From: Tissierellales bacterium
Lineage (GTDB): Bacteria > Bacillota > Clostridia > Tissierellales > JASKZW01
Assembly: GCA_030152145.1 (NCBI GenBank)
Contig: JASLIL010000018.1
Span: 5,100-69,099 of the forward strand
DNA: 64,000 nucleotides
Reading direction: 5' to 3'
The position numbers were made by a program, and so were the translations under genes. The notes beneath the pieces were generated by a model that was given only the letters and a program-made list of their open reading frames with translations, was not told the origin of the DNA and ran no database searches. This document shows positions 1 to 14,882 of this stretch, in pieces. Each line of letters starts with the position of its first letter. The stretch's first letter is position 1.

Positions 1-2288
1 AGATCGTAGATGCAACTTATAAAAAATACGAAGGTGCAGTTTCCACACCAGAACTTAGAGGATTGGTGCTTAAGGAGATTATGTCCAATAAGAAGTTGTG
101 TATTAATGATGGAGAACTAATAGTGGGTGAAAGAGGAGAGGCACCAGCTGCAACTCCAACCTATCCAGAGCTATGCTGTCACACAGTTGAAGATATGGAA
201 ATAATGAACAAGAGAGAGAAGATTTCCTTTAAAGTTAGGGACGAAGACATGAAGCTTCAAGAAGAAACTATAATTCCTTACTGGGAAAAAAGATCTATGA
301 GACACCATATTCTAGAAAATATGACAGACCAGTGGAAGGACTGCTACTATGCAGGTATATTCACTGAGTTCATGGAACAAAGAGGACCAGGACACACTGT
401 AGCCGATAAAAAAGTTTTTGAAAATGGTTTTGAGGACTTCCAAAAGAGAATTCATGAAGAAATAGAAAATCTTGATTACCTTAATGATGATAGGGCTCTA
501 GATAAGCTTAACCAATTAAAGGGTATGAGCATTGCTTGTGATGCAGTTATGATATTGGGAGACAGATACTCAGAATATGCTAAGGAGCTAGCAGAAAAAG
601 AAAGTGATCCAAAAAGAAAAGAAGAGCTTCTAGAAATATCAGAGGTTTGTGCCCATGTACCAAGAAAGGCTCCAAGAACTTTCAGAGAAGCCCTACAAAT
701 GTACTGGTTTGTACACCTATGTGTAATTACAGAGTTAAATCCATGGGATTCATTTAACCCAGGAAGACTGGACCAGCACTTAAATCCTTTCTATGAAAAG
801 GAAACTTCTGAGGGAACTTTAAGTCGTGAAGAAGCAGAAGAACTACTGCAATGTTTCTGGGTGAAGTTTAACAACCAACCAGCTCCTCCAAAAGTAGGAG
901 TTACCCTAAAGGAAAGTGGAACTTATACAGACTTTGCCAATATAAACAGTGGTGGTTTAAAAACAGATGGTACTGATGGTGTAAACGAAGTTAGCTACTT
1001 GGTTTTAGATGTTATAGATGAAATGAAGCTTCTTCAACCAAGCTCAAATGTTCAAATCAGCAAGAAGACTCCACAAAAATTCTTAAAAAGAGCCTTAAAG
1101 ATAGTTAGAAAGGGTTGGGGTCAACCATCAATCTTCAATACAGATACTGTAATTCAAGAGATGTTAAGGGCAGGAAAATCTATAGAAGACGCAAGAGATG
1201 GCGGTAACTCAGGCTGTGTTGAAACAGGTGCTTTTGGTAAGGAATCATTTATCCTAACAGGATATTTTAACCTTCCAAAGGTTTTAGAAATAACCCTAAA
1301 TAATGGACTAGATCCTATTAGTGGAAAGCAATTAGGTATAAAGACTGGTGATCCAAGAGACTTTGAAACTTATGATGAATTATTTGAAGCTTTCAAGGCT
1401 CAGATGGAACACTTTATAGATATAAAGGTTAGAGGTAACAGAGTAATTGAAAGACTTTATGCTACTAAGATGCCAGTACCTTTCCTATCAGTTATAATTG
1501 ATGACTGTATATCAGAAGGAAAGGATTACAATGCAGGTGGTGCAAGATATAACACAAGCTATATCCAAGGTGTTGGTATAGGTAATATTACTGACGCTCT
1601 TTCAAGTATTAAATACAATGTATTTGATGAAAAGAAGGTAAGTATGGATGAGCTTCTAAAGGCTGTAGAGGCTAATTTTGAAGGCTATGAAGAATTACAC
1701 TACCAAGTAACTAGAAAAACTCCTAAGTATGGTAATGATGATGACTATGCTGATACTATAATGCAGGATGTCTTCAATGCCTACTATGACGAGGTTACAG
1801 GTAGACCAAATGGTAAGGGCGGAGTTCATAGAATAAATATGCTACCTACAACCTGCCATGTTTACTTTGGATCAGTTATAGGAGCTACTACAGATGGTAG
1901 ACTGGCTCACTTACCACTAGCAGATGGTATTTCACCTTCAAAAGGAGCAGATACTTCAGGACCTACAGGAGTTATTAAATCAGCTTCAAAGATGGACCAC
2001 ATTAAGACTGGTGGAACCTTATTAAATCAAAAGTTTACACCTTCTATAGTAGCTGGTGAAGATGGACTAGATAACCTGGCTCACTTTGTTAGGGCTTATT
2101 TCACTATGGATGGTCACCATATTCAGTTTAATATTATAGACAGGGATACACTTTTAGATGCTCAAGAAAATCCAGATGACTATAAGAATTTAATTGTTAG
2201 GGTAGCAGGCTATAGTGATTATTTTGGAAACCTAGACAAGGCTTTACAAGATGAAATCATAGCAAGAACAGAACAAACTTTTGAGTAA
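1..2288 (+). CDS. hypD: glycyl radical enzyme, probable trans-4-hydroxy-L-proline dehydratase (5' end outside window)
   Basis: The reading frame is open from nt 3 to the window edge, so the track Met at 63 is internal. It has the C-terminal glycyl-radical motif RVAGYSDYF and the GCVE Cys/Glu loop typical of dehydratase-type GREs. The implied size is above 760 aa. proC follows directly, as in characterised HypD loci. Confidence 0.75.
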   Translation, partial: IVDATYKKYEGAVSTPELRGLVLKEIMSNKKLCINDGELIVGERGEAPAATPTYPELCCHTVEDMEIMNKREKISFKVRDEDMKLQEETIIPYWEKRSMRHHILENMTDQWKDCYYAGIFTEFMEQRGPGHTVADKKVFENGFEDFQKRIHEEIENLDYLNDDRALDKLNQLKGMSIACDAVMILGDRYSEYAKELAEKESDPKRKEELLEISEVCAHVPRKAPRTFREALQMYWFVHLCVITELNPWDSFNPGRLDQHLNPFYEKETSEGTLSREEAEELLQCFWVKFNNQPAPPKVGVTLKESGTYTDFANINSGGLKTDGTDGVNEVSYLVLDVIDEMKLLQPSSNVQISKKTPQKFLKRALKIVRKGWGQPSIFNTDTVIQEMLRAGKSIEDARDGGNSGCVETGAFGKESFILTGYFNLPKVLEITLNNGLDPISGKQLGIKTGDPRDFETYDELFEAFKAQMEHFIDIKVRGNRVIERLYATKMPVPFLSVIIDDCISEGKDYNAGGARYNTSYIQGVGIGNITDALSSIKYNVFDEKKVSMDELLKAVEANFEGYEELHYQVTRKTPKYGNDDDYADTIMQDVFNAYYDEVTGRPNGKGGVHRINMLPTTCHVYFGSVIGATTDGRLAHLPLADGISPSKGADTSGPTGVIKSASKMDHIKTGGTLLNQKFTPSIVAGEDGLDNLAHFVRAYFTMDGHHIQFNIIDRDTLLDAQENPDDYKNLIVRVAGYSDYFGNLDKALQDEIIARTEQTFE

Positions 2289-2335
2289 ATAAGATAATAA
2301 AATTTGAATAATTGAGTTAAAAGATTTATCATAAT

Positions 2336-2363
2336 AGAGAAGAGGACTCTGGTCTTCTTCTCT
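2336..2363 (+). terminator. stem-loop after the GRE gene (possible weak terminator)
   Basis: AGAGAAGAGGAC-tctg-GTCTTCTTCTCT forms a 12-bp stem with one G-U pair. The trailing sequence is only weakly T-rich. Confidence 0.45.
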
Positions 2364-2410
2364 ATATTCATAAGTTAAGGAATGTAGGATAAAAAAAGGA
2401 GGAATTACAA

Positions 2411-3217
2411 ATGAGTAAAACATTAGGTTTTATAGGTAATGGAAATATGGGTAGAGCTATGATAGGTGGTATAATCAATGCCAATCTATTTGCAGCAGAA
2501 GATATTATAGTTTCTGATATATTTGAAGAGGGATTAAAAGACGTACATAAGAAATTAGGTGTAAATGTTACAACAGACAATTGTGAGCTAGCAAAAAAAG
2601 CAGATATTATAGTTCTTTCAATTAAGCCTAACCTATATCCGATGATCATAAAGCAAATCAAGGATGCAGTTAAGGAAGATGCAATTATAGTTACAATAGC
2701 GGCAGGAAAAGCTATTGCTGATACAGAAGCTAACTTTGGCCGTCAAATGAAGGTAGTAAGAGTTATGCCTAACACTCCTGCCCTAGTAGGTGAAGGAATG
2801 TCAGCTCTATGCCCTAGTGAAGCAGTTACAGAGGAAGAGTTTAAGGTAATAGAAGATATGTTCAATAGCTTTGGTAAGGCTGAAAAAGTTCAAGAATACC
2901 TAATGGACGCTGTAACATCTGTAAGTGGATCATCACCAGCCTATGTATATATGTTTATAGAGGCTATGGCAGATGCAGCAGTACTAGACGGAATGCCAAG
3001 ACCACAGGCCTATAGATTTGCAGCTCAGGCAGTTTTAGGTTCAGCTAAAATGGTTTTAGAAACAGGAATGCACCCAGGTGTCCTAAAAGACATGGTTTCT
3101 TCACCAGCAGGAACAACTATAGAAGCTGTAGCTAAACTAGAGGAAAAAGGCTTTAGAGATGCTGTTATTTCAGCTATGAGAGCTTGTACTAAAAAGTCAC
3201 AGGAAATGTCTAAATAA
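2411..3217 (+). CDS. proC: pyrroline-5-carboxylate reductase
   Basis: 268 aa with an N-terminal Rossmann motif GFIGNGNMG and the conserved C-terminal SSPAGTTIE region of P5C reductases. An AAGGAGG RBS lies upstream. Confidence 0.9.
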   Translation: MSKTLGFIGNGNMGRAMIGGIINANLFAAEDIIVSDIFEEGLKDVHKKLGVNVTTDNCELAKKADIIVLSIKPNLYPMIIKQIKDAVKEDAIIVTIAAGKAIADTEANFGRQMKVVRVMPNTPALVGEGMSALCPSEAVTEEEFKVIEDMFNSFGKAEKVQEYLMDAVTSVSGSSPAYVYMFIEAMADAAVLDGMPRPQAYRFAAQAVLGSAKMVLETGMHPGVLKDMVSSPAGTTIEAVAKLEEKGFRDAVISAMRACTKKSQEMSK

Positions 3218-3291
3218 TTTTTATTTTGCAAAAACATTTTCACCATTGTGATATTTATGGTATAATTTACTTTAAAGGAGGCTAACTGGTC

Positions 3292-5076
3292 ATGAATGTG
3301 AATGAAAAAATAAAGGCACTAAGGAAACTAATGAAGGAAAAAGCTATAGATGCTTATATAGTTCCAACTTCAGATCCTCATCAAAGTGAATACCTAGCAG
3401 ACTACTATCAAACAAGAGTTTGGCTAACAGGATTCACAGGTTCAGCAGGTACTGCAGTTGTAACTGAAGATAAGGCTATACTTTGGACAGATGGTAGATA
3501 TTTTATTCAGGCAGCTAAAGAACTTGAAGGTTCAGAGTTTGAACTTTATAAGATAGGTATTCCAGGATACCCAACTTATAGTGAATGGTTAGCAGAAAAC
3601 TTAGATGATAAGTCTACTATTGGATTTGATGGAAAGAACTTCCCTCAAGCTGGTCTAGATACTCTAAAGGCAGCTATGGGAAGAAAGGAAATCAATTTCA
3701 ATATAGAAGATGATTTAATAGATCCTATATGGGAAGATAGGCTGGAGGAACCAAAGACAGATGCTTTTGTACATGAGTTAAAGTACACAGGTTATTCAGC
3801 AAAGGAAAAAATTGAACAGGTGAGAGAGCAACTTAAGAAAAAATCTGCTAGTCACACTGTTATAGGTAGCCTAGATGATATTGCTTGGCTTTATAATATT
3901 AGGGGAAGAGATGTAAGCTGTAACCCAGTGGTAATCTCCTATGCTATAGTATCCTTAGATGAGGCCTACCTATTTGTGAATGAAGAAAAGCTAGACCAGG
4001 AAGTAAGAAACCATTTAACTCAAAATGGAATTAAAATAGAGGATTATAGTAGGGTAAGAAACTTTTTAGAAGGAATTTCAAAGGAAAGTGTTGTTTACTT
4101 AAATCCAAACTTTGTAAATGCTTGGCTTTATGCTGGTATTCCAAGTGACTGCCACATAGTGAAAGGCTTAAACATTACAACAGAATTAAAGGCTATAAAA
4201 AATGAAACAGAGATAAAGAATCAAAAGAATGCCTATATTAGAGATGGAGTTGCCTTGGTTAAATTTTTCCACTGGCTAGATGAAACTGTTGGAAGAGAAA
4301 AGGTAACAGAAGTATCAGCAGCTGATAAGCTAGAGGACTTTAGGCGTGAAGGGGAACTTTTCGTAGAACCTAGTTTCAACACTATAGCAGGCTACAAGGC
4401 CAATGCTGCTATGATGCACTATAGAGCTACTGAAGAAGGTTCAAATGATGAACTTAAGGAAGAAGGTATGCTACTAGTTGACTCAGGCGGACAATATTTT
4501 GATGGTACTACAGATATAACAAGAACTATTATCCTAGGACCTATATCAGAAGAAGAGAAAAAAGACTTCACTTTAACATTTAAATCACATACAATGTTAT
4601 TAGATTCTAAATTCCTTTATGGGTCTACAGGTGAGAGGCTAGATGCAATTTGCCGTTATCCAATGTGGCAGGAAGGTTTAGACTATAAGTGTGGCACAGG
4701 TCATGGTGTAGGGTATTTCCTAAATGTTCATGAAGGACCTCATAGTATATCACCTAGACCAAATACAACTGTTCTAGAAGAAGGAATGATAGTTACCATA
4801 GAACCAGGAGTATACAAGGCTGGTCTGCATGGTGTAAGAATAGAGAATGATGTAGTAGTTAGAAAGGCCTTTGAGACAGAGCATGGAGGACAATTCATGG
4901 AATTTGAAGTAATTTCATTTGCTCCAATAGACTTAAGAGGTATAGAGGTTTCAATGTTAAATGAAAAAGAAAAAAAATGGTTAAATAACTACCACAAGGC
5001 AGTATATGAAAAGCTTGCACCTCACCTAGATAATGAGAGAAAAGCATGGCTTAAAAATGCAACTAGAGAGATTTAG
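3292..5076 (+). CDS. Xaa-Pro aminopeptidase (M24B, aminopeptidase P family)
   Basis: 594 aa with creatinase/prolidase-type N-domains and a pita-bread C-domain. Metal-ligand context is present: VDSGGQY..DITRT, HGVGYFLNVHEGP, EPGVY..IEN. Confidence 0.85.
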   Translation: MNVNEKIKALRKLMKEKAIDAYIVPTSDPHQSEYLADYYQTRVWLTGFTGSAGTAVVTEDKAILWTDGRYFIQAAKELEGSEFELYKIGIPGYPTYSEWLAENLDDKSTIGFDGKNFPQAGLDTLKAAMGRKEINFNIEDDLIDPIWEDRLEEPKTDAFVHELKYTGYSAKEKIEQVREQLKKKSASHTVIGSLDDIAWLYNIRGRDVSCNPVVISYAIVSLDEAYLFVNEEKLDQEVRNHLTQNGIKIEDYSRVRNFLEGISKESVVYLNPNFVNAWLYAGIPSDCHIVKGLNITTELKAIKNETEIKNQKNAYIRDGVALVKFFHWLDETVGREKVTEVSAADKLEDFRREGELFVEPSFNTIAGYKANAAMMHYRATEEGSNDELKEEGMLLVDSGGQYFDGTTDITRTIILGPISEEEKKDFTLTFKSHTMLLDSKFLYGSTGERLDAICRYPMWQEGLDYKCGTGHGVGYFLNVHEGPHSISPRPNTTVLEEGMIVTIEPGVYKAGLHGVRIENDVVVRKAFETEHGGQFMEFEVISFAPIDLRGIEVSMLNEKEKKWLNNYHKAVYEKLAPHLDNERKAWLKNATREI

Positions 5077-5086
5077 TTAGGTTGAA

Positions 5087-5118
5087 AAAGATTAGTCTAT
5101 TAATTTAGGCTAATCTTT
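5087..5118 (+). terminator. stem-loop after the aminopeptidase gene
   Basis: AAAGATTAG...CTAATCTTT gives a 9-bp stem with a 14-nt loop. There is no strong T tract. Confidence 0.45.
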
Positions 5119-5164
5119 ACCTATAACTTTGAAAAAGCTTGCTAGTAAAGGAATGGTGGTTTGA

Positions 5165-6559
5165 TTGGACTACAAAAGCATGATAGAATTGATGATAAAG
5201 CATTTAGACGAAGGTGTTATAGTAATAGATCATGATTTAAAAATCGTCTATTTCAACGAACCTTCAACATCCATTACAGGATATGACGTAGATAAAGCTA
5301 TAGGTAAGGATATATTTGAAGTATTTCCATCCTTAGACAGGAAAAGCAGTATTCTTTGTAAGGCCATACATAGTAAAGAACCTATTATTGATTACATACA
5401 GAACTATACAAATTGTGTTGGAAAGGAAGTCTCCATTTTAACTTCTACCATACCTATAGTAGAAGAAGGTGAAGTTAAGGGAGCTATAGAGATATTTAAA
5501 GACCTAACCCATGTCAGGGAATTATCAGAAAAGGTGCTTATGCTACAAAATACTCTATATGAGAAATCAAAAGATCAGGAAATATTTTTACCCAATGGAA
5601 CTCAATACACTATTAATGATATAATAAGTAAGAATGAAAGAATGGATGGGCTTAAGGAAAGAGTTCTGAAAATTTCAAATAGTAGCTCACCAGTATTCGT
5701 ATATGGAGAGACAGGTACAGGTAAGGAGCTTTTGGTACAGGGAATACACAATTCCAGTATCAGAAGGGAAAAGCCCTTTATAGCACAAAACTGTGGGGCC
5801 CTACCAGAAAATCTCTTAGAGAGTATTCTTTTTGGAACAGTACAGGGAAGCTTTACTGGAGCCAAGGACAAGCCAGGACTTTTTGAACTGGCAGATGGTG
5901 GGACATTATTTCTAGATGAAATCAATTCTATGGACATAAACTTACAAACCAAACTTCTTAGGGTTATAGAAAATGGTATAGTAAGAAGAATTGGTAGCAC
6001 AGAAACCAAGCATGTAGACGTTAGAATAATAGCAGCATCAAATGTAGAACCAGAATTACTACTAGAAGGAAATAAGTTAAGGGAAGACCTATATTACAGA
6101 CTAAATGTAATATACTTTGAACTACCACCACTAAGGGAAAGAAAGGAAGATATACCCTTACTGGTAAATAAATTTATAGATAAGTGTAATAAAAAGCTTC
6201 ATAAAAACATCAATGGTATAAGACCAGAGGTTTTAAGTTTGTTTGTAGAAAGAACTTGGTCAGGTAATGTAAGGGAACTTCAAAATGCCATAGAGTCATC
6301 CATGAACTTTGCAGAAGGAGACTATATAGAGCTGGAAGATCTAAACCTGCCAAGAGAAAGACAGACAGTAGATTCAGAAGATCTTGACTTTGAAAGTCTT
6401 GATTTTGATTTAAAGGACGCAGTTGAAAGGTATGAGATGGAAATTATAAAATCTGCCTTGATGAACACTGAAAACAACTGTGCTGCAGCTGCCAGGAAAC
6501 TAAATGTTCCAAAGCAGACCCTTCATGGAAAAATCAAACGCTATAAGATAATGTCTTAA
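5165..6559 (+). CDS. sigma-54-dependent transcriptional activator (PAS - AAA+ - Fis-type HTH)
   Basis: N-terminal PAS-like domain, Walker A GETGTGKE, the sigma-54 contact loop GSFTGA (a GAFTGA variant), ESILFG, and a C-terminal HTH (AAAARKLNVPKQTLHGKIKRY). The start is TTG, following GGTGG. Confidence 0.9.
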   Translation: MDYKSMIELMIKHLDEGVIVIDHDLKIVYFNEPSTSITGYDVDKAIGKDIFEVFPSLDRKSSILCKAIHSKEPIIDYIQNYTNCVGKEVSILTSTIPIVEEGEVKGAIEIFKDLTHVRELSEKVLMLQNTLYEKSKDQEIFLPNGTQYTINDIISKNERMDGLKERVLKISNSSSPVFVYGETGTGKELLVQGIHNSSIRREKPFIAQNCGALPENLLESILFGTVQGSFTGAKDKPGLFELADGGTLFLDEINSMDINLQTKLLRVIENGIVRRIGSTETKHVDVRIIAASNVEPELLLEGNKLREDLYYRLNVIYFELPPLRERKEDIPLLVNKFIDKCNKKLHKNINGIRPEVLSLFVERTWSGNVRELQNAIESSMNFAEGDYIELEDLNLPRERQTVDSEDLDFESLDFDLKDAVERYEMEIIKSALMNTENNCAAAARKLNVPKQTLHGKIKRYKIMS

Positions 6560-6590
6560 AAACGAGACGAAAAGTACCAAAAACAAGACG
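6558..6590 (+). promoter_or_regulatory. phased direct repeats, candidate enhancer (UAS) for the sigma-54 activator
   Basis: AAAAACGAGACG (6558-6569) and AAAAACAAGACG (6579-6590) match at 11 of 12 positions. Their starts are 21 bp apart (two helical turns), and they lie roughly 50-80 bp upstream of the -24 element. Confidence 0.4.
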
Positions 6591-6638
6591 GCATTAAGGT
6601 TAGCAAAAACAACTTGTGTATTTCACTGACTTACAAGT

Positions 6639-6654
6639 TGGCAAGCTAATTGCA
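6639..6654 (+). promoter_or_regulatory. sigma-54 (-24/-12) promoter
   Basis: TGGCAAGCTAATTGCA. The GG (6640-6641) and GC (6652-6653) have exactly the spacing of the TGGCACG-N4-TTGCW consensus. I found no good sigma-A promoter in 6560-6812. The activator gene lies immediately upstream. Confidence 0.8.
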
Positions 6655-6812
6655 ATATATATACTGTATAGATACAAACCAAGGAATATTTGAATAAGTT
6701 AGACTATTCAATATTGTTTGAAGATTACTTTAGTTTGAATTAAGTGAATATTTTAAATCTGTTCACTATTTCAATAAATAAAACACTTAAATAATTTTAG
6801 GGGGTAGGAAAC

Positions 6813-8579
6813 ATGAAGAAAAGGTACATTGCATTTCTGTTAATCCTAGTTCTATCAATGGGAGTTTTAGCAGGATGTGGCGGAAAAGACGCTGAAGAAC
6901 CAGCTAAACCAGAAACAACAGAAGATGGAGAAACAACAGAAGAAACATCAGAAGAAACTGAAGAAATGGACGCAGAGCAAAAGTTCGTATTTAGTGATAA
7001 CAGTGCGGTTTTAGGACTTAACCCATTATTAAACACAACTGGTCCAGATAACGGTGCACAAGATATCATTCTTGAAAGTTTAGTTAAAAAAGTTGCAGAC
7101 GAAGATGGACAACAATTCTTAAAGCCTGCAGTTGCAGAAAGCTGGGATGTAAGTGAAGATGGAAAAACTTACACATTCCACATAAGAGAAAATGCTAAAT
7201 GGCATGATGGAGAACCAATTACAGCAGATGACTTTGTATTTACTTTCAGAACTATGGCTACACCAGCTACTGGTTCAACAAATGCTTGGTTATTTGATGG
7301 TGTTATAGAAAACTTCGCAGAAGCTTTATATAATGATGGAGAAACTCCAGAGTATGACAAGCAACCAGAAGATATTGGAGTAACTGCTATAGATGAGAAA
7401 ACAGTTGAATTCCAATTAGAGAGACCATTCTCAGCATTCTTACAATTATTAAATGGTGCTAAACCAGTAAGACAAGATAAGTGGGAAGAATGGGGAGAAA
7501 CATATGGTTCATCAGTAGATAAAGTACTTATGAACGGACCTTTCATAGCTACTAGCTGGGACCAAGACGTTCAAATGACTTATGAAAAGAATCCAGAGTA
7601 TTGGGATGTAGAAAATATCAAGCTAGACAAAATGGAAAGAAAGGTTCTTAAAGAGCCAGCAACTTCAATCCAAGCACTTATTAGTGGAGAGATTGACGTA
7701 GTAGGAACAAATGATCCAGACTGGCAAGAATTGATAGAAGCTGAAGGAGATAGATTTAGACAAATAATAACTCCAGGTAACGGACCAGAGTTCTTAGGTT
7801 TAAACTGTCAAAATGAATACTTAGCTAACACTAAGATAAGACAAGCACTATCAATATCATATGATAGAGAGAAATACTTAGACGACCTAAGACATGGAAA
7901 AGGTGAAGCACTTTACTCAATGTGTCCAAAGGTTACTAACGTTGGAGATAAACTATACTCAGAAAGAGTAGATGGCAAAAACCAAATTGTTAAAATCTTA
8001 CAAGAAAAATATCCAGATCCAAAAGCACTTTTAGTAGAAGGATTAAAAGAAGCAGGATTTGATGAAGATCCAGCTAAAATGAAGGTAAGATATGCTACTC
8101 GTGGTACTACAGAGTACTCAAAAAAATCAGCTGAGTGGTTATTGCAAGAATGGCAAGAAAAACTTGGTATGACTATTACTATCGATATGATGGAATGGAA
8201 TATCATGTGGGATAAAGTGAATGAAGGAGATTATGATATCTCAACAGCTGGATGGGGACCATACTATAATGACCCAGCAGCATTATTAGAACTTTATCAT
8301 CCAGTAGATGGTTACTTCAACTCAACTAAATCAGGTTGGGAAGGGCCAGATGCAGACAAATTTGCTGAGTTACTAGACAAAGCAGGACAAACAGTAGATG
8401 ATCAAGAAAGAGCAGAGATGTTACTTGAAGCAGAAGAATTATTAGTAGGTACAGGAGTTATAATCCCAACATATGCAGGTGAATCATCAACATACATCGC
8501 TTCATATGTAAAAGGATATTACACAAACCCACATAGTTCATTAGACTATAGCAAGATTTACACTTCAGGTAGACCATAG
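6813..8579 (+). CDS. peptide ABC transporter substrate-binding lipoprotein (family 5, Opp/Dpp-like)
   Basis: Signal peptide with lipobox LAGC, followed by an acidic Glu/Thr-rich linker. The 588-aa size fits SBP family 5. It is the first gene of a 5-gene importer operon. Confidence 0.85.
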   Translation: MKKRYIAFLLILVLSMGVLAGCGGKDAEEPAKPETTEDGETTEETSEETEEMDAEQKFVFSDNSAVLGLNPLLNTTGPDNGAQDIILESLVKKVADEDGQQFLKPAVAESWDVSEDGKTYTFHIRENAKWHDGEPITADDFVFTFRTMATPATGSTNAWLFDGVIENFAEALYNDGETPEYDKQPEDIGVTAIDEKTVEFQLERPFSAFLQLLNGAKPVRQDKWEEWGETYGSSVDKVLMNGPFIATSWDQDVQMTYEKNPEYWDVENIKLDKMERKVLKEPATSIQALISGEIDVVGTNDPDWQELIEAEGDRFRQIITPGNGPEFLGLNCQNEYLANTKIRQALSISYDREKYLDDLRHGKGEALYSMCPKVTNVGDKLYSERVDGKNQIVKILQEKYPDPKALLVEGLKEAGFDEDPAKMKVRYATRGTTEYSKKSAEWLLQEWQEKLGMTITIDMMEWNIMWDKVNEGDYDISTAGWGPYYNDPAALLELYHPVDGYFNSTKSGWEGPDADKFAELLDKAGQTVDDQERAEMLLEAEELLVGTGVIIPTYAGESSTYIASYVKGYYTNPHSSLDYSKIYTSGRP

Positions 8580-8599
8580 GACATTTTTATGAACCTAAT

Positions 8600-8628
8600 G
8601 GCAAGATGTAGATTATCTACATCTTGCC
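8600..8628 (+). promoter_or_regulatory. intra-operon stem-loop between the SBP and permease genes
   Basis: GGCAAGATGTAGA-tta-TCTACATCTTGCC is a perfect 13-bp stem with no T tract after it. Confidence 0.6.
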
Positions 8629-8666
8629 TTATATAAAAGGTTAGCACCAAAGTAAGGAGGAGAAAG

Positions 8667-9596
8667 ATGTTTAAATTTATAGTAAAAAGAGTATTTTACT
8701 CATTAATTACACTATTCCTTATAATTACTGCTACATTCTTTTTAATAGCAGGAGCACCTGGAGATCCAATAGCTGCAAAAGCAGAACAAATGCCAGAACA
8801 AGCCCAAGCAGTAATAAAGGCAAAATATGGTTTGGATAAGCCCGTGGGTCAAAGATATGTAAAGTACATGAAGGACCTTATCACAACAGGAGATTTTGGT
8901 GAATCAATAGTATTCACAGGTAAATCAGCTAATGATGTTATTAGAGAAAATGCACCCATATCAGCTAAGATTGGTATAATTGCAGTTGTATTACAGTTTA
9001 TTATAGGAGTATTTTTAGGAATGGTTTCAGGATTAAATAGAGGAAAAGTCGGAGACCATGTTATCAGGGTATGTGTTGTATTAGCAATTTGTATTCCTGG
9101 ATTTGTATTCGCAGCATTATTACAATACTTTATAGCATTTAAGTGGAAGTTGCTTCCAGTATTTGGTTGGGGACAACTTAAGCACTATGTACTACCAGTA
9201 TTAGCCTATACTATAGGTGGTATTGCTTCATATACTAAGTATATGAGAAGTAGTATATTGTCAGTAGTAAATGAAGACTACATTATCACAGCTAAGGCAA
9301 AAGGTTGTTCAAAGAAGAGAATCATTAAAAAGCATATGTTTAGAAACTCAATGATTCCTATTGTAACAATGGTAGGACCTGCTATAGCGGGTATATTCGG
9401 TGGATCATTCGTAATTGAGAATATGTTTGGTATACCAGGATTAGGATCTTACTATATGAAAGCTGTAGGTGACAATGACTATACAATGGTTTTAGGATTA
9501 ACTGTATTCTTTGCAGCGCTTTACGTTGTATCATTAATATTCGTAGACATTGCATATGGAATAGTAGACCCAAGAATCAAGATAGCAGAAGACTAA
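8667..9596 (+). CDS. peptide ABC transporter permease (OppB/DppB-like)
   Basis: 309 aa and polytopic, with an EAA-type loop (KAKGCSKKRIIKKHMFRNS). Operon context supports the call. Confidence 0.85.
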   Translation: MFKFIVKRVFYSLITLFLIITATFFLIAGAPGDPIAAKAEQMPEQAQAVIKAKYGLDKPVGQRYVKYMKDLITTGDFGESIVFTGKSANDVIRENAPISAKIGIIAVVLQFIIGVFLGMVSGLNRGKVGDHVIRVCVVLAICIPGFVFAALLQYFIAFKWKLLPVFGWGQLKHYVLPVLAYTIGGIASYTKYMRSSILSVVNEDYIITAKAKGCSKKRIIKKHMFRNSMIPIVTMVGPAIAGIFGGSFVIENMFGIPGLGSYYMKAVGDNDYTMVLGLTVFFAALYVVSLIFVDIAYGIVDPRIKIAED

Positions 9597-9632
9597 AACT
9601 ATTAGCACACACTTAAGTTAGGAGGTTAATAT

Positions 9633-10571
9633 ATGGCAAATGTGAATGAAAACACAAAAAACATTTCAAAAGATATGTTTAGACGTGTTGGAGTAGATGA
9701 GACAGACTCAGAAAGACTAGATAAACCTTCACTTACATATTGGGCAGACGTTTGGAGAAGGTTTAAGGAAAATAAACTTGCCATGTTTGGTTTAATTCTA
9801 TTAACATTAGTTGTAATAACTATATTTGTAGGACCAACATTAGCGGGTAAAGATTATCAATACATGGATGCAAGTAAGAAAAACTTAAGACCAACGAGTG
9901 AACATTGGTTTGGTACAGATGATATGGGTAGAGACCTATTTACAAGGGTTTGCTACGGTGGTAGAATTTCTATATTAATAGGTCTACTATGTACTATAGT
10001 AATGTTCGTTGTAGGATCTTTATTAGGAGCATTAGCAGGATTAAAAGGTGGGGTTGTAGATAACCTTATAATGAGATTTACAGAGTTTATAGGTAACTTA
10101 CCTTACTTGATTATAGTAATAATACTTACTATGGTTATGGGAAGAAGTATCTTCTCACTAGTATTTGCCATGAGTATTTTATCCTGGGTAGGAACTACTA
10201 GGATGGTTAGAGGGCAGATACTACAGTTAAAGGAAATGGATTATATTCAAGCAGCAACGGCTTTAGGAGCTGGAACTGGTAGAATAATAATGAAGCATTT
10301 ACTTCCTAATACGCTGGGAATAATAATGGTAACAATAACAATGTCTGTTCCTGGATTTATATTCAGTGAGGCATTCTTAAGCTTTATCGGTCTTGGTGTT
10401 AGACCACCAGAGACAAGCTGGGGAGCATTAGCATCCGGTGGTAAAGAAAGACTTATGTTCCATCCACATATTTTATTTTTCCCAAGTTTGATGATCGTTT
10501 TAACTGTATTAGCATTCCACTTAATCGGTGACGGATTATCAGACGCATTGGATCCAAAATTAAGGGAGTAG
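9633..10571 (+). CDS. peptide ABC transporter permease (OppC/DppC-like)
   Basis: 312 aa with the N-terminal OppC-type extension, HWFGTDDMGRD, and an EAA loop (AATALGAGTGRIIMKHLLPN). Confidence 0.85.
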   Translation: MANVNENTKNISKDMFRRVGVDETDSERLDKPSLTYWADVWRRFKENKLAMFGLILLTLVVITIFVGPTLAGKDYQYMDASKKNLRPTSEHWFGTDDMGRDLFTRVCYGGRISILIGLLCTIVMFVVGSLLGALAGLKGGVVDNLIMRFTEFIGNLPYLIIVIILTMVMGRSIFSLVFAMSILSWVGTTRMVRGQILQLKEMDYIQAATALGAGTGRIIMKHLLPNTLGIIMVTITMSVPGFIFSEAFLSFIGLGVRPPETSWGALASGGKERLMFHPHILFFPSLMIVLTVLAFHLIGDGLSDALDPKLRE

Positions 10572-10581
10572 GTGAATTGTA

Positions 10582-11628
10582 ATGACAAATGAAGATAAAA
10601 TTTTAGAGATAAATAATCTGCATGTATCATTTAAAACATACGCAGGTATTGTTAAAGCAGTTAGAGGTGTAGACTTCCACTTAAACAAGGGGGAAACTCT
10701 TGCTATAGTAGGAGAATCTGGTTGTGGTAAGACTGTAACAGCTAAGGCTATAATGGACTTACTTCCAGTAGAGAATACTATTATTAGTGGAGAAAATGCC
10801 TTTGTTAAATTTAGAGGCAAAAATCTTTTACAATTTAAAGAATCAGAGATGGAAGAAATCAGAGGTAAGAGAATATCAATGATATTCCAAGACCCTATGA
10901 CTTCTTTGAACCCAACTATGAGAGTTGGAGATCAGATAGCTGAAAGTATCTTCATTCATGAAGAGCTTTCTAAAGAAGATGCTAAAAAAGCAGCTCTAAA
11001 GATGCTTAAATTAGTTAATATACCAAATGCAGAGGAAAGAATGAATCAATATCCATTTGAATTCTCAGGCGGTATGAGACAAAGAGTTATGATTGCTATA
11101 GCACTTGCTTGTAACCCAGAAATACTAATAGCAGATGAACCAACTACTGCTCTAGACGTTACAATTCAAGCGCAAATAATGGAACTTATAAAAGAGTTAC
11201 AAATTGAAATGAACACTGGAGTAATACTTGTTACTCACGACCTTGGAGTTGTTGCTAGTGTTGCAGATAGAATTCAGGTAATGTATGCTGGTATGATTCT
11301 TGAAAGAGGAACTACAGATGAAATATTCTATAGTCCAAGACATCCATACACACATGCCTTATTAAGATCTGTACCAAAACTTACAAGTACAAAGCAAGAA
11401 AGATTATATTCACTTGTAGGTACACCACCAGATTTAACAAATCCACCAAAGGGATGTCCTTTTGCGGCTAGATGTGAATATGCTATGCAGGTTTGTAGAG
11501 AAGTCCATCCAGAAACAACTCATTTTAGCTCAACTCATGCTTCAGATTGCTGGTTACACCATCAAGATGCAGACCTAAATGGAGTACCAGAGGAGCTTTT
11601 AGAAAGAGGTGTTGAATATGGAAAATAA
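10582..11628 (+). CDS. peptide ABC transporter ATP-binding protein (OppD-like)
   Basis: Walker A GESGCGKT, signature FSGGMRQR, Walker B ILIADEPTTALD, and an oligopeptide-type C-terminal extension containing Cys residues. Confidence 0.9.
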   Translation: MTNEDKILEINNLHVSFKTYAGIVKAVRGVDFHLNKGETLAIVGESGCGKTVTAKAIMDLLPVENTIISGENAFVKFRGKNLLQFKESEMEEIRGKRISMIFQDPMTSLNPTMRVGDQIAESIFIHEELSKEDAKKAALKMLKLVNIPNAEERMNQYPFEFSGGMRQRVMIAIALACNPEILIADEPTTALDVTIQAQIMELIKELQIEMNTGVILVTHDLGVVASVADRIQVMYAGMILERGTTDEIFYSPRHPYTHALLRSVPKLTSTKQERLYSLVGTPPDLTNPPKGCPFAARCEYAMQVCREVHPETTHFSSTHASDCWLHHQDADLNGVPEELLERGVEYGK

Positions 11629-12607
11629 AGAAAAAGAAGTATTAGTTAGTGTTAAGAATCTGAAAAAATACTTCGAAGTTGGTAGAAATCTATATGTTCA
11701 AGCAGTAGATGATGTTAGCTTTGATATATATAAAGGAGAAACACTAGGACTAGTAGGAGAGTCAGGTTGCGGTAAGACTACTTGTGGTAAAACTGTAATA
11801 GGACTTTATGATGCTACTGAAGGTGAAGTTTTATTTAAGGGTGAAGATGTTCACTCATTAGATAAGAAGGAGAAAAAAGAGTTTACTAAAAAAGCTCAAA
11901 TTATTTTCCAGGACCCTTACGCATCCTTGAACCCAAGAATGACTGTTGGAGATATAATAGGAGAAGGTATAGATATACATCACCTAGCAGAAGGACAAGA
12001 AAGAGAAAATATGATTCTGGATCTTTTAAGAACTGTAGGGCTAAACAAGGAGCATATCTCAAGATTTGCTCATGAGTTCTCAGGTGGACAAAGACAAAGA
12101 ATTGGTATTGCTCGTGCCCTAGCTATACAACCAGACTTTATAGTTTGTGATGAGCCTATATCAGCTCTAGACGTATCTATCCAAGCTCAGGTAGTAAACC
12201 TACTTATGGACTTACAAAAGAAACAAGGATTAACATATTTATTTATTGCCCATGACCTATCAATGGTTAAATACATTTCAGACAGAGTTGGAGTAATGTA
12301 TTTAGGACAGATGGTAGAGTTAACTACAAGTGATGAATTATATGATAATCCACTACACCCATATACAAAAGCTCTAATGTCAGCTATACCAGTAGCAGAC
12401 CCTAAGATTGAAGAGGAAAAACATAGAATTCCTATTAAGGGAGAGATTCCTTCACCAATCAATCCACCAGCTGGATGTAGGTTTAGAAAGCGTTGTAAGT
12501 ATGCAGAGGAAATTTGTAAGACAAATCCAGAGTTTAAAGAACACAAACCAGGCCACTTTGTTGCTTGTCACTTAGTTGGTACAGGTAAAATAGAAGATAA
12601 GTATTAG
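11618..12607 (+). CDS. peptide ABC transporter ATP-binding protein (OppF-like)
   Basis: Walker A GESGCGKTT, signature FSGGQRQR, Walker B FIVCDEPISALD. I prefer the ATG at 11618 (RBS AAGAGG 8 nt upstream) to the track GTG at 11609. It overlaps the oppD-like stop. Confidence 0.9.
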   Translation: MENKEKEVLVSVKNLKKYFEVGRNLYVQAVDDVSFDIYKGETLGLVGESGCGKTTCGKTVIGLYDATEGEVLFKGEDVHSLDKKEKKEFTKKAQIIFQDPYASLNPRMTVGDIIGEGIDIHHLAEGQERENMILDLLRTVGLNKEHISRFAHEFSGGQRQRIGIARALAIQPDFIVCDEPISALDVSIQAQVVNLLMDLQKKQGLTYLFIAHDLSMVKYISDRVGVMYLGQMVELTTSDELYDNPLHPYTKALMSAIPVADPKIEEEKHRIPIKGEIPSPINPPAGCRFRKRCKYAEEICKTNPEFKEHKPGHFVACHLVGTGKIEDKY

Positions 12608-12617
12608 GAGGTAGTTC

Positions 12618-13733
12618 ATGTTACTTAGAGACGGAATTATTCACATAGGGAATGGTCAAGTCTTAGAGGGATATGATATCTTAATTGCTGATTCTAAAAT
12701 AGTTAAAGTAGATAAAAATATTTCTGCAGATAATGTGGAAATTATAGAAATCCAGGGAATGCATGTATTTCCTGGATTTATAGACCCTTTAAGTTCATAC
12801 GGAAGTATGGACTTAACTTTTTCTATGAAGGATAATAATGAAGATACAGATCCTATTCAGAAGGACTTGGAAATAAAATATGCTTTTAACCCAGCGGAGA
12901 TAAAGCTGGAGGGACTGGAAACTGTAGGTATTACAAATATAGGGGCTTCACCTGGAAACTATAATATAATAGGTGGAAACATATCCCTTTATAATACATA
13001 TGAAGAGGAATTTAGAAGGTTCTTAGTAAGGGAAGATCTGGGACTAAAGGGAGCAGCTTCAGAAGTAGTAAAGGATATATTTAAGGAAAAAAATCAAGTT
13101 ATGACTAAGATGGGACTTTTTAAAAGGCTGGAAGACTGGCTACAAGAAAGTAAGAAGGAAGAGGGAAGCCTATCTAAGAAGGTTGTAGAAGGGGAAAAGC
13201 CGCTGTTTATCCATGCAAATACAGAAATGGAGATAAATTCTGTATTAAATGTTTTTAAGGATACAAAGGTTAGGCTAGTTTTACTGGGGGCCTATGAGTT
13301 TCACAAGTGTTTGAAAGCCATAAAGGACTATGGAAATATAGGCTTGATAATAGGTGAGCAAACTAATTTAACAATTAGGGGCTATTATGAAACTCAGTTA
13401 GAGAAGGCTAGAGAACTAACTAGTGAGGGTATACCAGTAAGTCTTACCTTAACAGGAGAGTATGGACCAGAAGGTAAGGTCAAGTATCTTTGGAATGCTA
13501 TAGAGTTTTATAAAAGAGGCCTGGCTTCAGAGGAAGTTATATCCTATATGACTCTTAATCCAGCCAAGATGCTGGGGGTAGATGATATCTTAGGAACTAT
13601 AGAAGAGGGAAAACTAGCTAATATGGTAGTCTATGAAAACAACCCTATTGAAACTTATGATAGTAGATGTAAAAAGACTATTATAAATGGCAAAATAGTA
13701 TATCAGGGAGGTTTTGATAATGCTACTTATTAA
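12618..13733 (+). CDS. amidohydrolase-superfamily paralog with degenerate metal site (probable non-catalytic subunit)
   Basis: It aligns along its length with the ORFs at 13720 and 30881, but the ligand positions are replaced. PGFIDPLSSYG stands in place of the HxH motif, PLFIH in place of PLK-H, IIG in place of LDH, and LTLTG in place of TTDAP. Confidence 0.7.
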   Translation: MLLRDGIIHIGNGQVLEGYDILIADSKIVKVDKNISADNVEIIEIQGMHVFPGFIDPLSSYGSMDLTFSMKDNNEDTDPIQKDLEIKYAFNPAEIKLEGLETVGITNIGASPGNYNIIGGNISLYNTYEEEFRRFLVREDLGLKGAASEVVKDIFKEKNQVMTKMGLFKRLEDWLQESKKEEGSLSKKVVEGEKPLFIHANTEMEINSVLNVFKDTKVRLVLLGAYEFHKCLKAIKDYGNIGLIIGEQTNLTIRGYYETQLEKARELTSEGIPVSLTLTGEYGPEGKVKYLWNAIEFYKRGLASEEVISYMTLNPAKMLGVDDILGTIEEGKLANMVVYENNPIETYDSRCKKTIINGKIVYQGGFDNATY

Positions 13734-14862
13734 GAATACTAAAATCTACACCATGGAAGACAGGGGAATTATTGATGGGGACATTCTGATTGAGGATGGA
13801 AAAATAGTAAGGATAGCTGATAGTATAGATGAGAAGTATGAAAATACTATTGATGGTCAAGGTCTTATAACTATGCCAGGAATAATAGACTGCCACTCTC
13901 ATATAGGTGGTATGATCTTTAAACATGACAGGAGTCATGACTCCAATGAGATGACCAAGAACATAACACCAGATGTAAATATAATATATGGAACAGATCC
14001 CCAATCACCAGACTTTAGGTTTGCCCGTGAAAATGGTATAACAAGTCTGGGAATAACACCAGGTAGCGGTAATGTTATATGTGGTCAGGTTATAGCAAGT
14101 AAAACCTATGGTGATAATATCTTCCAAATGACCATGAAAAATCCAGTAGCTTTAAAGGTTGCTCTGGGAGGAAATCCTAAGGGAACCTATGGCAGTAGAA
14201 AGCAACTTCCTAGTACTAGAATGGGAGTGGCTAAGGTTTTAAGGGACTACCTAAGTGATGGTAGAGAGTATTTAAAAAAGAAGGCTGAGAATAAGGAAGA
14301 CTTTAAGATAGATCCTGAATTTGAAGTACTAGAGCCAGTCTTCAAAAAGGAGATACCACTTAAGATTCACTGTACTCAGTTTGATATATTGACAGCTATT
14401 GAAATAGCTAAGGAGTTTGATCTGGATTTTAGCTTGGATCATGCCTGGGGTGCTGTAGACTATATAGATGAAATAGTTGAAAGCGGCTGTGAGGTTGTCT
14501 ATGGACCAATAGGAAGTAGAAGGATTTTTGGGGAGTTAAGATTAATAGATATAGAAAGCTGTAAAACTCTTCATGAAAAAGGAGTTAGGGTAAGCATAAC
14601 AACAGATGCTCCCTTAAATAGTATAGATAGCTTAATGCATCATCTGGGAGAGGTAGTAAGGGCAGGACTTCCATATACAGAGGCCCTTAAAATGCTAACA
14701 ATAAATCCAGCCAAGGTTCTAAGGCTGGAGGACAGGATTGGTTCTATAAAAGAAGGTAAGGATGGAGATCTTGTAATCTTCAGAGGGCTACCAGCCTATG
14801 AAACGGATGCAAGGGTAGCATATACAATAATAGATGGAAAAATAGTATACAAGGGAGAGTAG
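13720..14862 (+). CDS. amidohydrolase-superfamily metallohydrolase (intact HxH / K-H / DH / D ligand set)
   Basis: It carries IDCHSHIGG, PLKIHCT, SLDHAWG and ITTDAP. The ATG at 13720 has RBS GGGAGG 8 nt upstream and gives MLLIKN, parallel to its paralogs. It overlaps the preceding ORF by 14 nt, suggesting translational coupling. Confidence 0.8.
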   Translation: MLLIKNTKIYTMEDRGIIDGDILIEDGKIVRIADSIDEKYENTIDGQGLITMPGIIDCHSHIGGMIFKHDRSHDSNEMTKNITPDVNIIYGTDPQSPDFRFARENGITSLGITPGSGNVICGQVIASKTYGDNIFQMTMKNPVALKVALGGNPKGTYGSRKQLPSTRMGVAKVLRDYLSDGREYLKKKAENKEDFKIDPEFEVLEPVFKKEIPLKIHCTQFDILTAIEIAKEFDLDFSLDHAWGAVDYIDEIVESGCEVVYGPIGSRRIFGELRLIDIESCKTLHEKGVRVSITTDAPLNSIDSLMHHLGEVVRAGLPYTEALKMLTINPAKVLRLEDRIGSIKEGKDGDLVIFRGLPAYETDARVAYTIIDGKIVYKGE

Positions 14863-14882
14863 TTAAAAGCTACTCTTTTTTT
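14856..14882 (+). terminator. rho-independent terminator closing the transporter/amidohydrolase operon
   Basis: AGAGTAG-ttaaaag-CTACTCT followed by a T7 run; it overlaps the stop codon. Confidence 0.8.

Follow-up and report, generated by a model that had tools for sequence, protein, structure and literature searches.

Among the closest described counterparts of the locus examined here are those in the reconstruction of sigma-54 regulons in the Clostridiales (Nie et al. 2019, PMC6615313), in which the gene for an enhancer-binding protein (EBP), mostly a one-component protein of the PAS type, stands beside its target, several upstream activating sequences (UAS) are present, and the targets serve amino-acid and peptide catabolism. 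PrdR, which activates the proline reductase (prd) operon in Clostridioides difficile and other Clostridia in a sigma-54-dependent manner, is reported with multiple UAS sites of the TGT-N10-12-ACA class and a neighboring target operon (PMC6615313). Here we describe a module of the same kind in a 64,000-nucleotide (nt) stretch of a Tissierellales bacterium genome (contig JASLIL010000018.1), which we term the window and in whose coordinates all unlabelled positions are given. Judging from sequence and its conservation, positions 6553-6654 very probably constitute the control region of an Opp-type operon (6813-14862), combining a sigma-54 promoter with sites for the activator encoded immediately upstream; in relatives the same module also precedes the genes of hydroxyproline dehydratase. 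The elements on which this reading depends are:

5165-6559, plus strand: sigma-54 EBP of 464 amino acids (aa) with a TTG start, comprising a PAS sensor, an AAA+ sigma-54 interaction domain and a C-terminal HTH_8 (hereafter the activator).
6553-6568, no strand assigned: putative UAS dyad A, GTCTTAAAAACGAGAC, an exact match to the dyad GTCY-N8-RGAC that extends across the activator stop codon into the final two codons and is centred about 79 bp upstream of the -24 GG.
6574-6589, no strand assigned: putative UAS dyad B, GTACCAAAAACAAGAC, a hybrid of the form GTAC-N8-AGAC, placed 21 bp (two helical turns) from dyad A; its centre lies about 58 bp upstream of the GG.
6638-6654, plus strand: predicted sigma-54 -24/-12 promoter, TTGGCAAGCTAATTGCA, with GG at 6640-6641 and GC at 6652-6653 and a predicted start near 6665.

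An initial annotation of this DNA had recognized TGGCAAGCTAATTGCA at 6639-6654 as a -24/-12 element with GG and GC at the consensus spacing, and both the coordinates and a consensus scan agree with it; inclusion of the preceding T extends the element to TTGGCAAGCTAATTGCA. The two dinucleotides lie 10 bp apart within the extended sigma-54 consensus YTGGCACGNNNNTTGCW, and the element shows one mismatch to TGGCACGNNNNTTGCW and none to TTGGCANNNNNNTTGCW. It also agrees with the clostridial consensus TTGGCATNNNNNTTGCT (given in PMC6615313) at 15 of 17 positions, or at 10 of the 12 that are specified. Matches to TGGCACGNNNNTTGCW with at most one mismatch number two in the window against 0.13 expected, and 6638-6654 is its only intergenic near-consensus -24/-12 element. 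The other match, TGGCAGGGGAGTTGCT (21718-21733), lies inside a pyruvate:ferredoxin oxidoreductase gene without upstream dyads and was set aside as most likely due to chance. The promoter is situated 80 nt 3' of the activator gene and 159 nt 5' of the operon start (6813), and from the usual sigma-54 spacing transcription is predicted to begin near 6665.

The activator possesses the hallmarks of an NtrC-family AAA+ EBP, namely the Walker A and B motifs, a GAFTGA-type loop, a lid domain and a C-terminal Fis-type HTH. Its Pfam matches are Sigma54_activat (PF00158; 1.2e-60), PAS (6e-12), HTH_8 (PF02954; 4.5e-6) and AAA_lid_14 (PF25601), and its translation contains the Walker A GETGTGKE, the Walker B LFLDE and the sigma-54 contact loop GSFTGA, which is counted among the functional loop variants in PMC6615313. 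A tblastn search with its AAA+ domain recovered no second EBP in the window, and this result together with the open reading frame (ORF) coordinates bears out the earlier statement that the only EBP of the window ends at 6559. The closest relatives of the activator, at 60-65% identity, come from Tissierellia (Brassicibacter, Tissierella, Schnuerera), and more distant ones at 54-59% include those of Lutispora and Geosporobacter, among others. As all homologues keep the N-terminus MDYK..., we take the TTG at 5165 (464 aa) to be the true start; the database copy (P0001) has 455 aa and was called from an internal ATG at 5192.

The best NCBIfam match of the activator is the PrdR profile NF041552, with 370 bits (369.7), and the two proteins share the sigma-54 AAA+ domain and the C-terminal HTH. 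The score is nevertheless well below the equivalog cut-off of 795, and the alignment covers profile positions 132-577 of 577, the N-terminal ~130 residues of PrdR being absent. Moreover, PrdR targets prd, whereas the neighbors of the activator are hypD, proC, pepP and opp, its orthologues adjoin hypD-activase/hypD or opp, and no prd genes are found in the window. Because of the sub-threshold score, the absent N-terminus and the different neighbors, we do not regard the activator as PrdR. The two systems are metabolically adjacent, in that proline produced by HypD and ProC is the substrate of the prd system, which reduces it. A second point of comparison is RocR of Bacillus subtilis, the regulator of arginine catabolic operons, which has the same PAS-AAA+-HTH one-component architecture. 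RocR enhancers can adjoin or lie downstream of neighboring genes. Several homologues of the activator, at ~52-55% identity, are labelled 'arginine utilization regulatory protein RocR', which is an automatic name only: unlike RocR, neither the activator nor its orthologues have arginine or ornithine catabolic genes beside them, their partners being hypD-activase/hypD and opp.

For comparison we assembled orthologous loci (labelled L0xx or L1xx) by means of exact protein look-ups and a metagenome scan that used the PAS domain only, since a first genome scan had been swamped by generic AAA+ motifs. In that scan the full-length activator alignment, used as the genome-contig query, seeded on the generic Walker A; among the matches listed there were only distant EBPs (at most 47% identity), and these were left out of the footprinting. 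The final set comprises 13 non-redundant loci, with Geosporobacter (L113) and Lutispora (L114) analyzed apart from them. A -24/-12 element with at most two mismatches is present 80-244 nt after the activator stop codon in 15 of 16 orthologous loci, and the element is conserved in 17 modules from the 13 loci. When the promoters of the 13 loci are stacked, TTGGCA and TTGC prove invariant at a fixed spacing, with TGGTA in L095 as the sole deviation, and the flanks are unconserved.

Upstream of the promoter two 12-mers, AAAAACGAGACG (6558-6569) and AAAAACAAGACG (6579-6590), had earlier been described as repeats on the same helical face. Their coordinates and the 21-bp distance between their starts hold, and the pattern that describes them, AAAAACNAGACG, has two exact occurrences in the window against 0.003 expected; they are, however, the right-hand three quarters of two 16-bp dyads and hence belong to inverted rather than direct repeats. 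The dyads also emerge from an unbiased motif search, in which the seeds were all 16-mers of the intervals between activator stop and promoter, each rated on its best match to every one of the other 12 loci, with 30 shuffles as the control. The top-ranking seed was GTCCTAAAAATAAGAC, with a score of 152 as against a shuffle mean of 142.6 and maximum of 146, and the second-ranked seed was a different dyad, AGTACTAAATTTAGTA. All 13 loci have a site A of the form GTCY-N8-RGAC 0-46 nt after the activator stop, followed downstream by a site B of the form GTAY-N8-RTAC. The spacing between the two falls into only two classes, 21-23 bp (the window, L085 and L098) or 39-42 bp (the other ten loci), or roughly two and four turns of the helix. 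In the 148 kb of the 13 loci there are 65 occurrences of the pattern GTMY-N8-RKAC, and 28 of these lie within the 17 intervals of 100 nt upstream of the sigma-54 promoters, against 0.43 expected from the same loci, an enrichment of about 65-fold.

Examination of the 34 compiled dyad sites revealed that G1, T2, A15 and C16 are nearly invariant, that position 3 is C in site A or A in site B, and that the centre is rich in A and T. Contig L092, which encodes an identical activator, differs from the window by one base in each dyad, in both cases within the N8 spacer, leaving the half-sites untouched. A TGT-N10-ACA class of UAS has been reported for EBPs of the PrdR type and of the NifA/FhlA type (PMC6615313). 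In the 34 sites the core GTC-N10-GAC (equivalently GT-N12-AC) is nearly invariant and the outer T and A of TGT/ACA are partial, dyad A of the window reading TGTC on the left and GACG on the right. By their sequence the dyads may be a form of this class in which the outer T and A are partly present. A hybrid site like dyad B, GTAC..GGAC, is also seen in the second module of L082. The A-rich core recurs a third time as TAGCAAAAACAA at 6601-6612, 26 bp beyond its counterpart in dyad B and devoid of the GT/AC half-sites; this copy may be left over from the duplication that gave rise to the second dyad.

The orthologous loci fall into two kinds by the genes that follow the activator. In L081, L082, L084, L093-095, L097, L113 (Geosporobacter) and L114 (Lutispora) these are the hypD-activase, a radical-SAM protein, and a 786-aa glycyl radical enzyme (GRE) that is 65-68% identical to HypD of the window; in the window itself, L085, L087, L089 and L101 they are opp genes. 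The module consisting of the two dyads and the promoter also occurs apart from the activator gene. The copy in B. mesophilus (L081) is situated between hypD and oppB, and its dyads precede TTGGCA by 87 and 64 nt, as against 85 and 64 nt in the window. The module at 8988 in L082 has its dyads 89 and 66 nt upstream of TTGGCA; that of Tissierella pigra (L091, at 8048) precedes oppB, and that of L096 (at 4009) precedes the hypD activase gene. This compact geometry, in which the dyads precede TTGGCA by 85-89 and 63-66 nt, is shared by the second modules of L081 and L082, by L085 and by L098. Geosporobacter displays a long form, with dyads 128 and 87 nt upstream, followed by an SNF-family transporter, the activase and the GRE. 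Hence a single activator family, operator and promoter type is associated with two kinds of operon, and would serve both hydroxyproline dehydratase and peptide or amino-acid transport. The module proposed in the initial annotation, a PAS sensor/EBP with UAS and a -24/-12 promoter, is thereby favored by the Pfam domains and by the phylogenetic footprinting of both promoter and repeats; its assignment to peptide uptake agrees with the opp operon downstream but is too narrow, as the same module fronts hypD in relatives.

Two of the comparison loci have peculiarities of their own. In Lutispora (L114, 6480-6660) the dyads are separated from the promoter by ~170 nt of inserted DNA that is GC-rich and structured and contains nested inverted repeats (GGGCGGCTTAG / CTAAGCCGCCC, for example). 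This insert shifts the UAS more than 200 nt upstream and looks like a small repeat element. In L082 / L083 the called start of the hypD-activase gene (5528-6517), at 5528, precedes the sigma-54 promoter at 5539-5555 and yields a protein of 329 aa as against 292-302 aa in relatives; this start was probably mis-called, the true one lying near 5618.

Site B is also distinguished by the structures in which it is found. In every orthologue the intrinsic terminator of the preceding gene has GTAY-N8-RTAC at its apex, with a T-run following and a fold z of -3.7 to -3.9 (L081 5455-5500, L082 5448-5482, L085 5430-5465, L087 5475-5525 and L113 about 6460-6495). A terminator is thus present between activator and promoter in all orthologues, whereas the window and L092 are without that hairpin, having lost it and retained the dyad B site. 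The outer stems of these terminators are wholly different between loci and yet complementary, and the sequence of the apical 16-mer is kept. Given this covariation of the stems around a constant apex, a single palindrome seems to do double duty, as terminator in the RNA and as enhancer in the DNA. The same structures bear on the possibility that some other regulator, and not the adjacent EBP, binds the dyads, or that these are just conserved remnants of terminator hairpins with no protein partner: as dyad B is a terminator apex in the orthologues, RNA structure could explain part of its symmetry. Remnants of this kind would not, however, account for the constancy of the apical sequence within stems that differ completely, for dyad A, which is part of no hairpin, or for dyad B of the window, which is hairpin-free and yet keeps its half-sites and phasing. 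As for another regulator, the dyads are found only with this EBP family and its promoters, where they show the enrichment given above, and their motif class probably fits that of HTH_8 EBPs. We therefore consider both variants quite improbable and retain the adjacent activator as the predicted partner of the dyads.

Several observations weigh against the interpretation of 6553-6654 as a sigma-54 control region of this type. Dyad B of the window is a hybrid with imperfect symmetry, and the bare dyad pattern is not rare within the window (2 found against 1.8 expected), for which reason we base support for the dyads on their position and conservation. The dyads, at about -83 and -104, are nearer to the promoter than the 100-250 bp that is the most common UAS distance in the Clostridiales (PMC6615313); although the module is of the same kind as those reconstructed there, its distances from dyad centre to GG of 58-79 bp are shorter than typical. 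No rpoN gene or sigma-54 factor domain is present among the ORFs of the 64-kb window, and an RpoN-box scan of all the DNA fetched recovered nothing from this lineage and one match in an unrelated locus (L017). To these may be added a sigma-A-like sequence that overlaps the -24 element, the lack of a terminator between the activator gene and the promoter in a scan of 6400-6900, and the fact that the ligand put forward below is guessed from gene context and kinship with the proline-responsive PrdR.

The first of these additional points would, if taken at face value, mean that an ordinary sigma-A promoter, TTGGCA (6638-6643)-16 nt-TATACT (6660-6665), drives the operon and that the GG/GC spacing is coincidental. 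The initial annotation had seen no convincing sigma-A promoter in the 253-nt gap between activator and operon; a simple consensus scan does return this sequence as a 10/12 match, but matches of such quality are about as frequent in this AT-rich region as chance predicts (3 found against 2.0 expected). Further, the best -10 sequences in the 13 orthologous promoters reach only 3-5 of 6 positions with spacers varying from 16 to 18, and the invariant TTGC would sit in the sigma-70 spacer. A sigma-A promoter would also leave unexplained the constant pairing of the element with an EBP gene and two dyads. Since TTGGCA and TTGC are invariant and the -10 is unconserved, we prefer sigma-54 over sigma-70, as far as sequence can settle the matter, and regard the sigma-A alternative as extremely improbable.

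With no terminator called in between, transcripts reading through from the activator gene may provide a second route to expression. It is conceivable that the opp operon is expressed mainly in this way, from the activator gene and possibly from hypD-proC-pepP, with the -24/-12 promoter providing an inducible boost or being vestigial. The orthologues carry a strong hairpin and T-run where the window has no terminator-like site, and the genes from 63 to 14862 are all on the same strand. Nonetheless, neither the promoter nor either dyad is disrupted, and together they agree almost base pair for base pair with the compact opp-type module of other genomes (85/64 against 87/64). Contig L092, which is nearly identical, retains them as well, and a stable hairpin ahead of the operon could impede read-through:

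6600-6649, plus strand: hairpin / inverted repeat with perfect 8-bp arms (6610-6617 and 6633-6640) and outer UUAGC/GCUAA pairing; fold -13.5 kcal/mol, z = -2.97.

On balance we think it unlikely that read-through is the main source of expression, and favor the sigma-54 promoter in this role. The hairpin contains the 7-bp inverted repeat AACTTGT (6611-6617) / ACAAGTT (6633-6639) that had been described as abutting the -24 element; it is present there but is in fact a perfect 8-bp repeat, whose 3' arm extends over the first G of the -24 GG. It lacks a following T-run and is not conserved in the orthologues, the other compact modules included. Moreover, a perfect 8-bp inverted repeat with a loop of 3-30 nt arises by chance in 21-25% of 253-nt regions. 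Being unconserved, without a T-run and frequent by chance, it was not counted in the conserved module, outside of which it probably lies.

These elements suggest the following mechanism. Sigma-54 RNA polymerase would bind TTGGCA-N6-TTGCA (6638-6654) as a closed complex, and the PAS-AAA+-HTH_8 activator would bind through its C-terminal HTH to the dyads at 6553-6568 and 6574-6589, which, being 21 bp apart, would present themselves on the same face of the DNA; their centres precede the predicted start by about 104 and 83 bp. The activator would then form an ATPase ring, whose GSFTGA loop could reach sigma-54 by DNA looping, and would open the promoter for transcription from near 6665. Activation is likely to be gated by the PAS domain in response to a small ligand. 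As the module precedes hypD-activase/hypD in relatives, and as hypD-proC-pepP and collagenases are encoded in the window, this signal is most likely hydroxyproline, proline or a hydroxyproline-containing collagen peptide. The regulon would in this manner couple the uptake of hydroxyproline peptides to the dehydration of hydroxyproline. Of these steps, the binding of the activator to the dyads, the dependence on sigma-54, the start site and the ligand are what we infer, from the elements themselves, the domain make-up of the activator, the conserved geometry and the gene associations.

HypD ranks among the most abundant glycyl radical enzymes in gut anaerobes, and for hypD the module offers a concrete candidate regulator with a defined 16-bp operator, a promoter and two types of target operon. 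Hydroxyproline induces hypD in some Clostridia, no regulator being named (PMC9044972). Among the 39 named groups of PMC6615313 none has hypD (pfl-like), proC or opp as targets; Geosporobacter, which belongs to the species set of that study, carries an orthologue of the activator together with the module. Our literature searches for a sigma-54/EBP regulator of hypD found none within the searchable literature, a description elsewhere being possible, and within that literature a hydroxyproline/collagen-peptide sigma-54 regulon appears to be undescribed. This regulon is likely to be the new part of the system: as predicted, it would join in a single unit the breakdown of collagen by collagenases and Xaa-Pro peptidases, the import of peptides and the dehydration of hydroxyproline. 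We are evenly divided over the broader proposal that the activator represents a new family, a sigma-54 activator responsive to hydroxyproline or collagen peptides that jointly controls hypD and a dedicated Opp importer across Tissierellia and Clostridia, with its second enhancer placed in a terminator apex. The mechanism itself is that of a textbook sigma-54/EBP system, so that these observations are of use for annotation and physiology and do not introduce a new principle.

The genes around the module, along with a further RNA element, are:

63-2288, plus strand: HypD, trans-4-hydroxy-L-proline dehydratase, its 5' end cut by the window (NCBIfam glycl_HYPD NF043068, equivalog, 1441 bits against a cut-off of 1100).
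2411-3217, plus strand: P5C reductase ProC, directly following hypD (TIGR00112, equivalog, 287 bits against a cut-off of 197).
3292-5076, plus strand: M24 Xaa-Pro peptidase (Pfam Peptidase_M24).
6813-8579, plus strand: Opp/Dpp-type substrate-binding lipoprotein, the first gene of the operon (SBP_bac_5, 4.7e-83; signal peptide with the lipobox LAGC).
8667-12607, plus strand: two permeases (OppB-like and OppC-like) and two ATPases (OppD-like and OppF-like), with Pfam matches to BPD_transp_1, OppC_N, ABC_tran and oligo_HPY.
12618-14862, plus strand: two amidohydrolase-superfamily genes (Pfam Amidohydro_1/3).
14851-14881, plus strand: hairpin and U-run, the likely intrinsic terminator of the operon (fold -13.3 kcal/mol, z = -4.86).
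15040-17379, strand not stated: M6 InhA-like metallopeptidase, within the window.
39400-41409 and 41617-44763, strand not stated: two M9 collagenases, one with a PKD domain.

The operon (6813-14862) thus has seven genes, coding for the SBP_bac_5 lipoprotein, two permeases, two ATPases and two amidohydrolases. Its first gene is preceded by the ribosome-binding site GGGGGTAGG and a 5' leader of ~148 nt, and an Rfam scan of 6400-6900 recovered no riboswitch or leader RNA family. The two amidohydrolases have only weak sub-threshold matches in NCBIfam, including isoaspartyl dipeptidase and Xaa-Pro dipeptidase, and are possibly dipeptidases. The hairpin at 14851-14881 was missed by the terminator scanner and found by RNA folding. 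The occurrence in one window of collagenases, a metallopeptidase, hypD, proC, an Xaa-Pro peptidase and opp points to an organism that lives by degrading collagen; upstream of the two collagenases and the M6 metallopeptidase neither a sigma-54 promoter nor a dyad was found.

A few further features of the window may be recorded. Between the Xaa-Pro peptidase and activator genes there is a hairpin at 5078-5123 (-19.5 kcal/mol, z = -5.0) without a clear T-run, which may separate the activator from the hypD-proC-pepP transcript. Beyond the 5' edge of the window we predict a second dyad/promoter module, along with the activase gene and the promoter of hypD. Finally, a Rex-type redox regulator (Put_DNA-bind_N and CoA_binding) is encoded directly upstream of a glutamate dehydrogenase gene (44976-47099).

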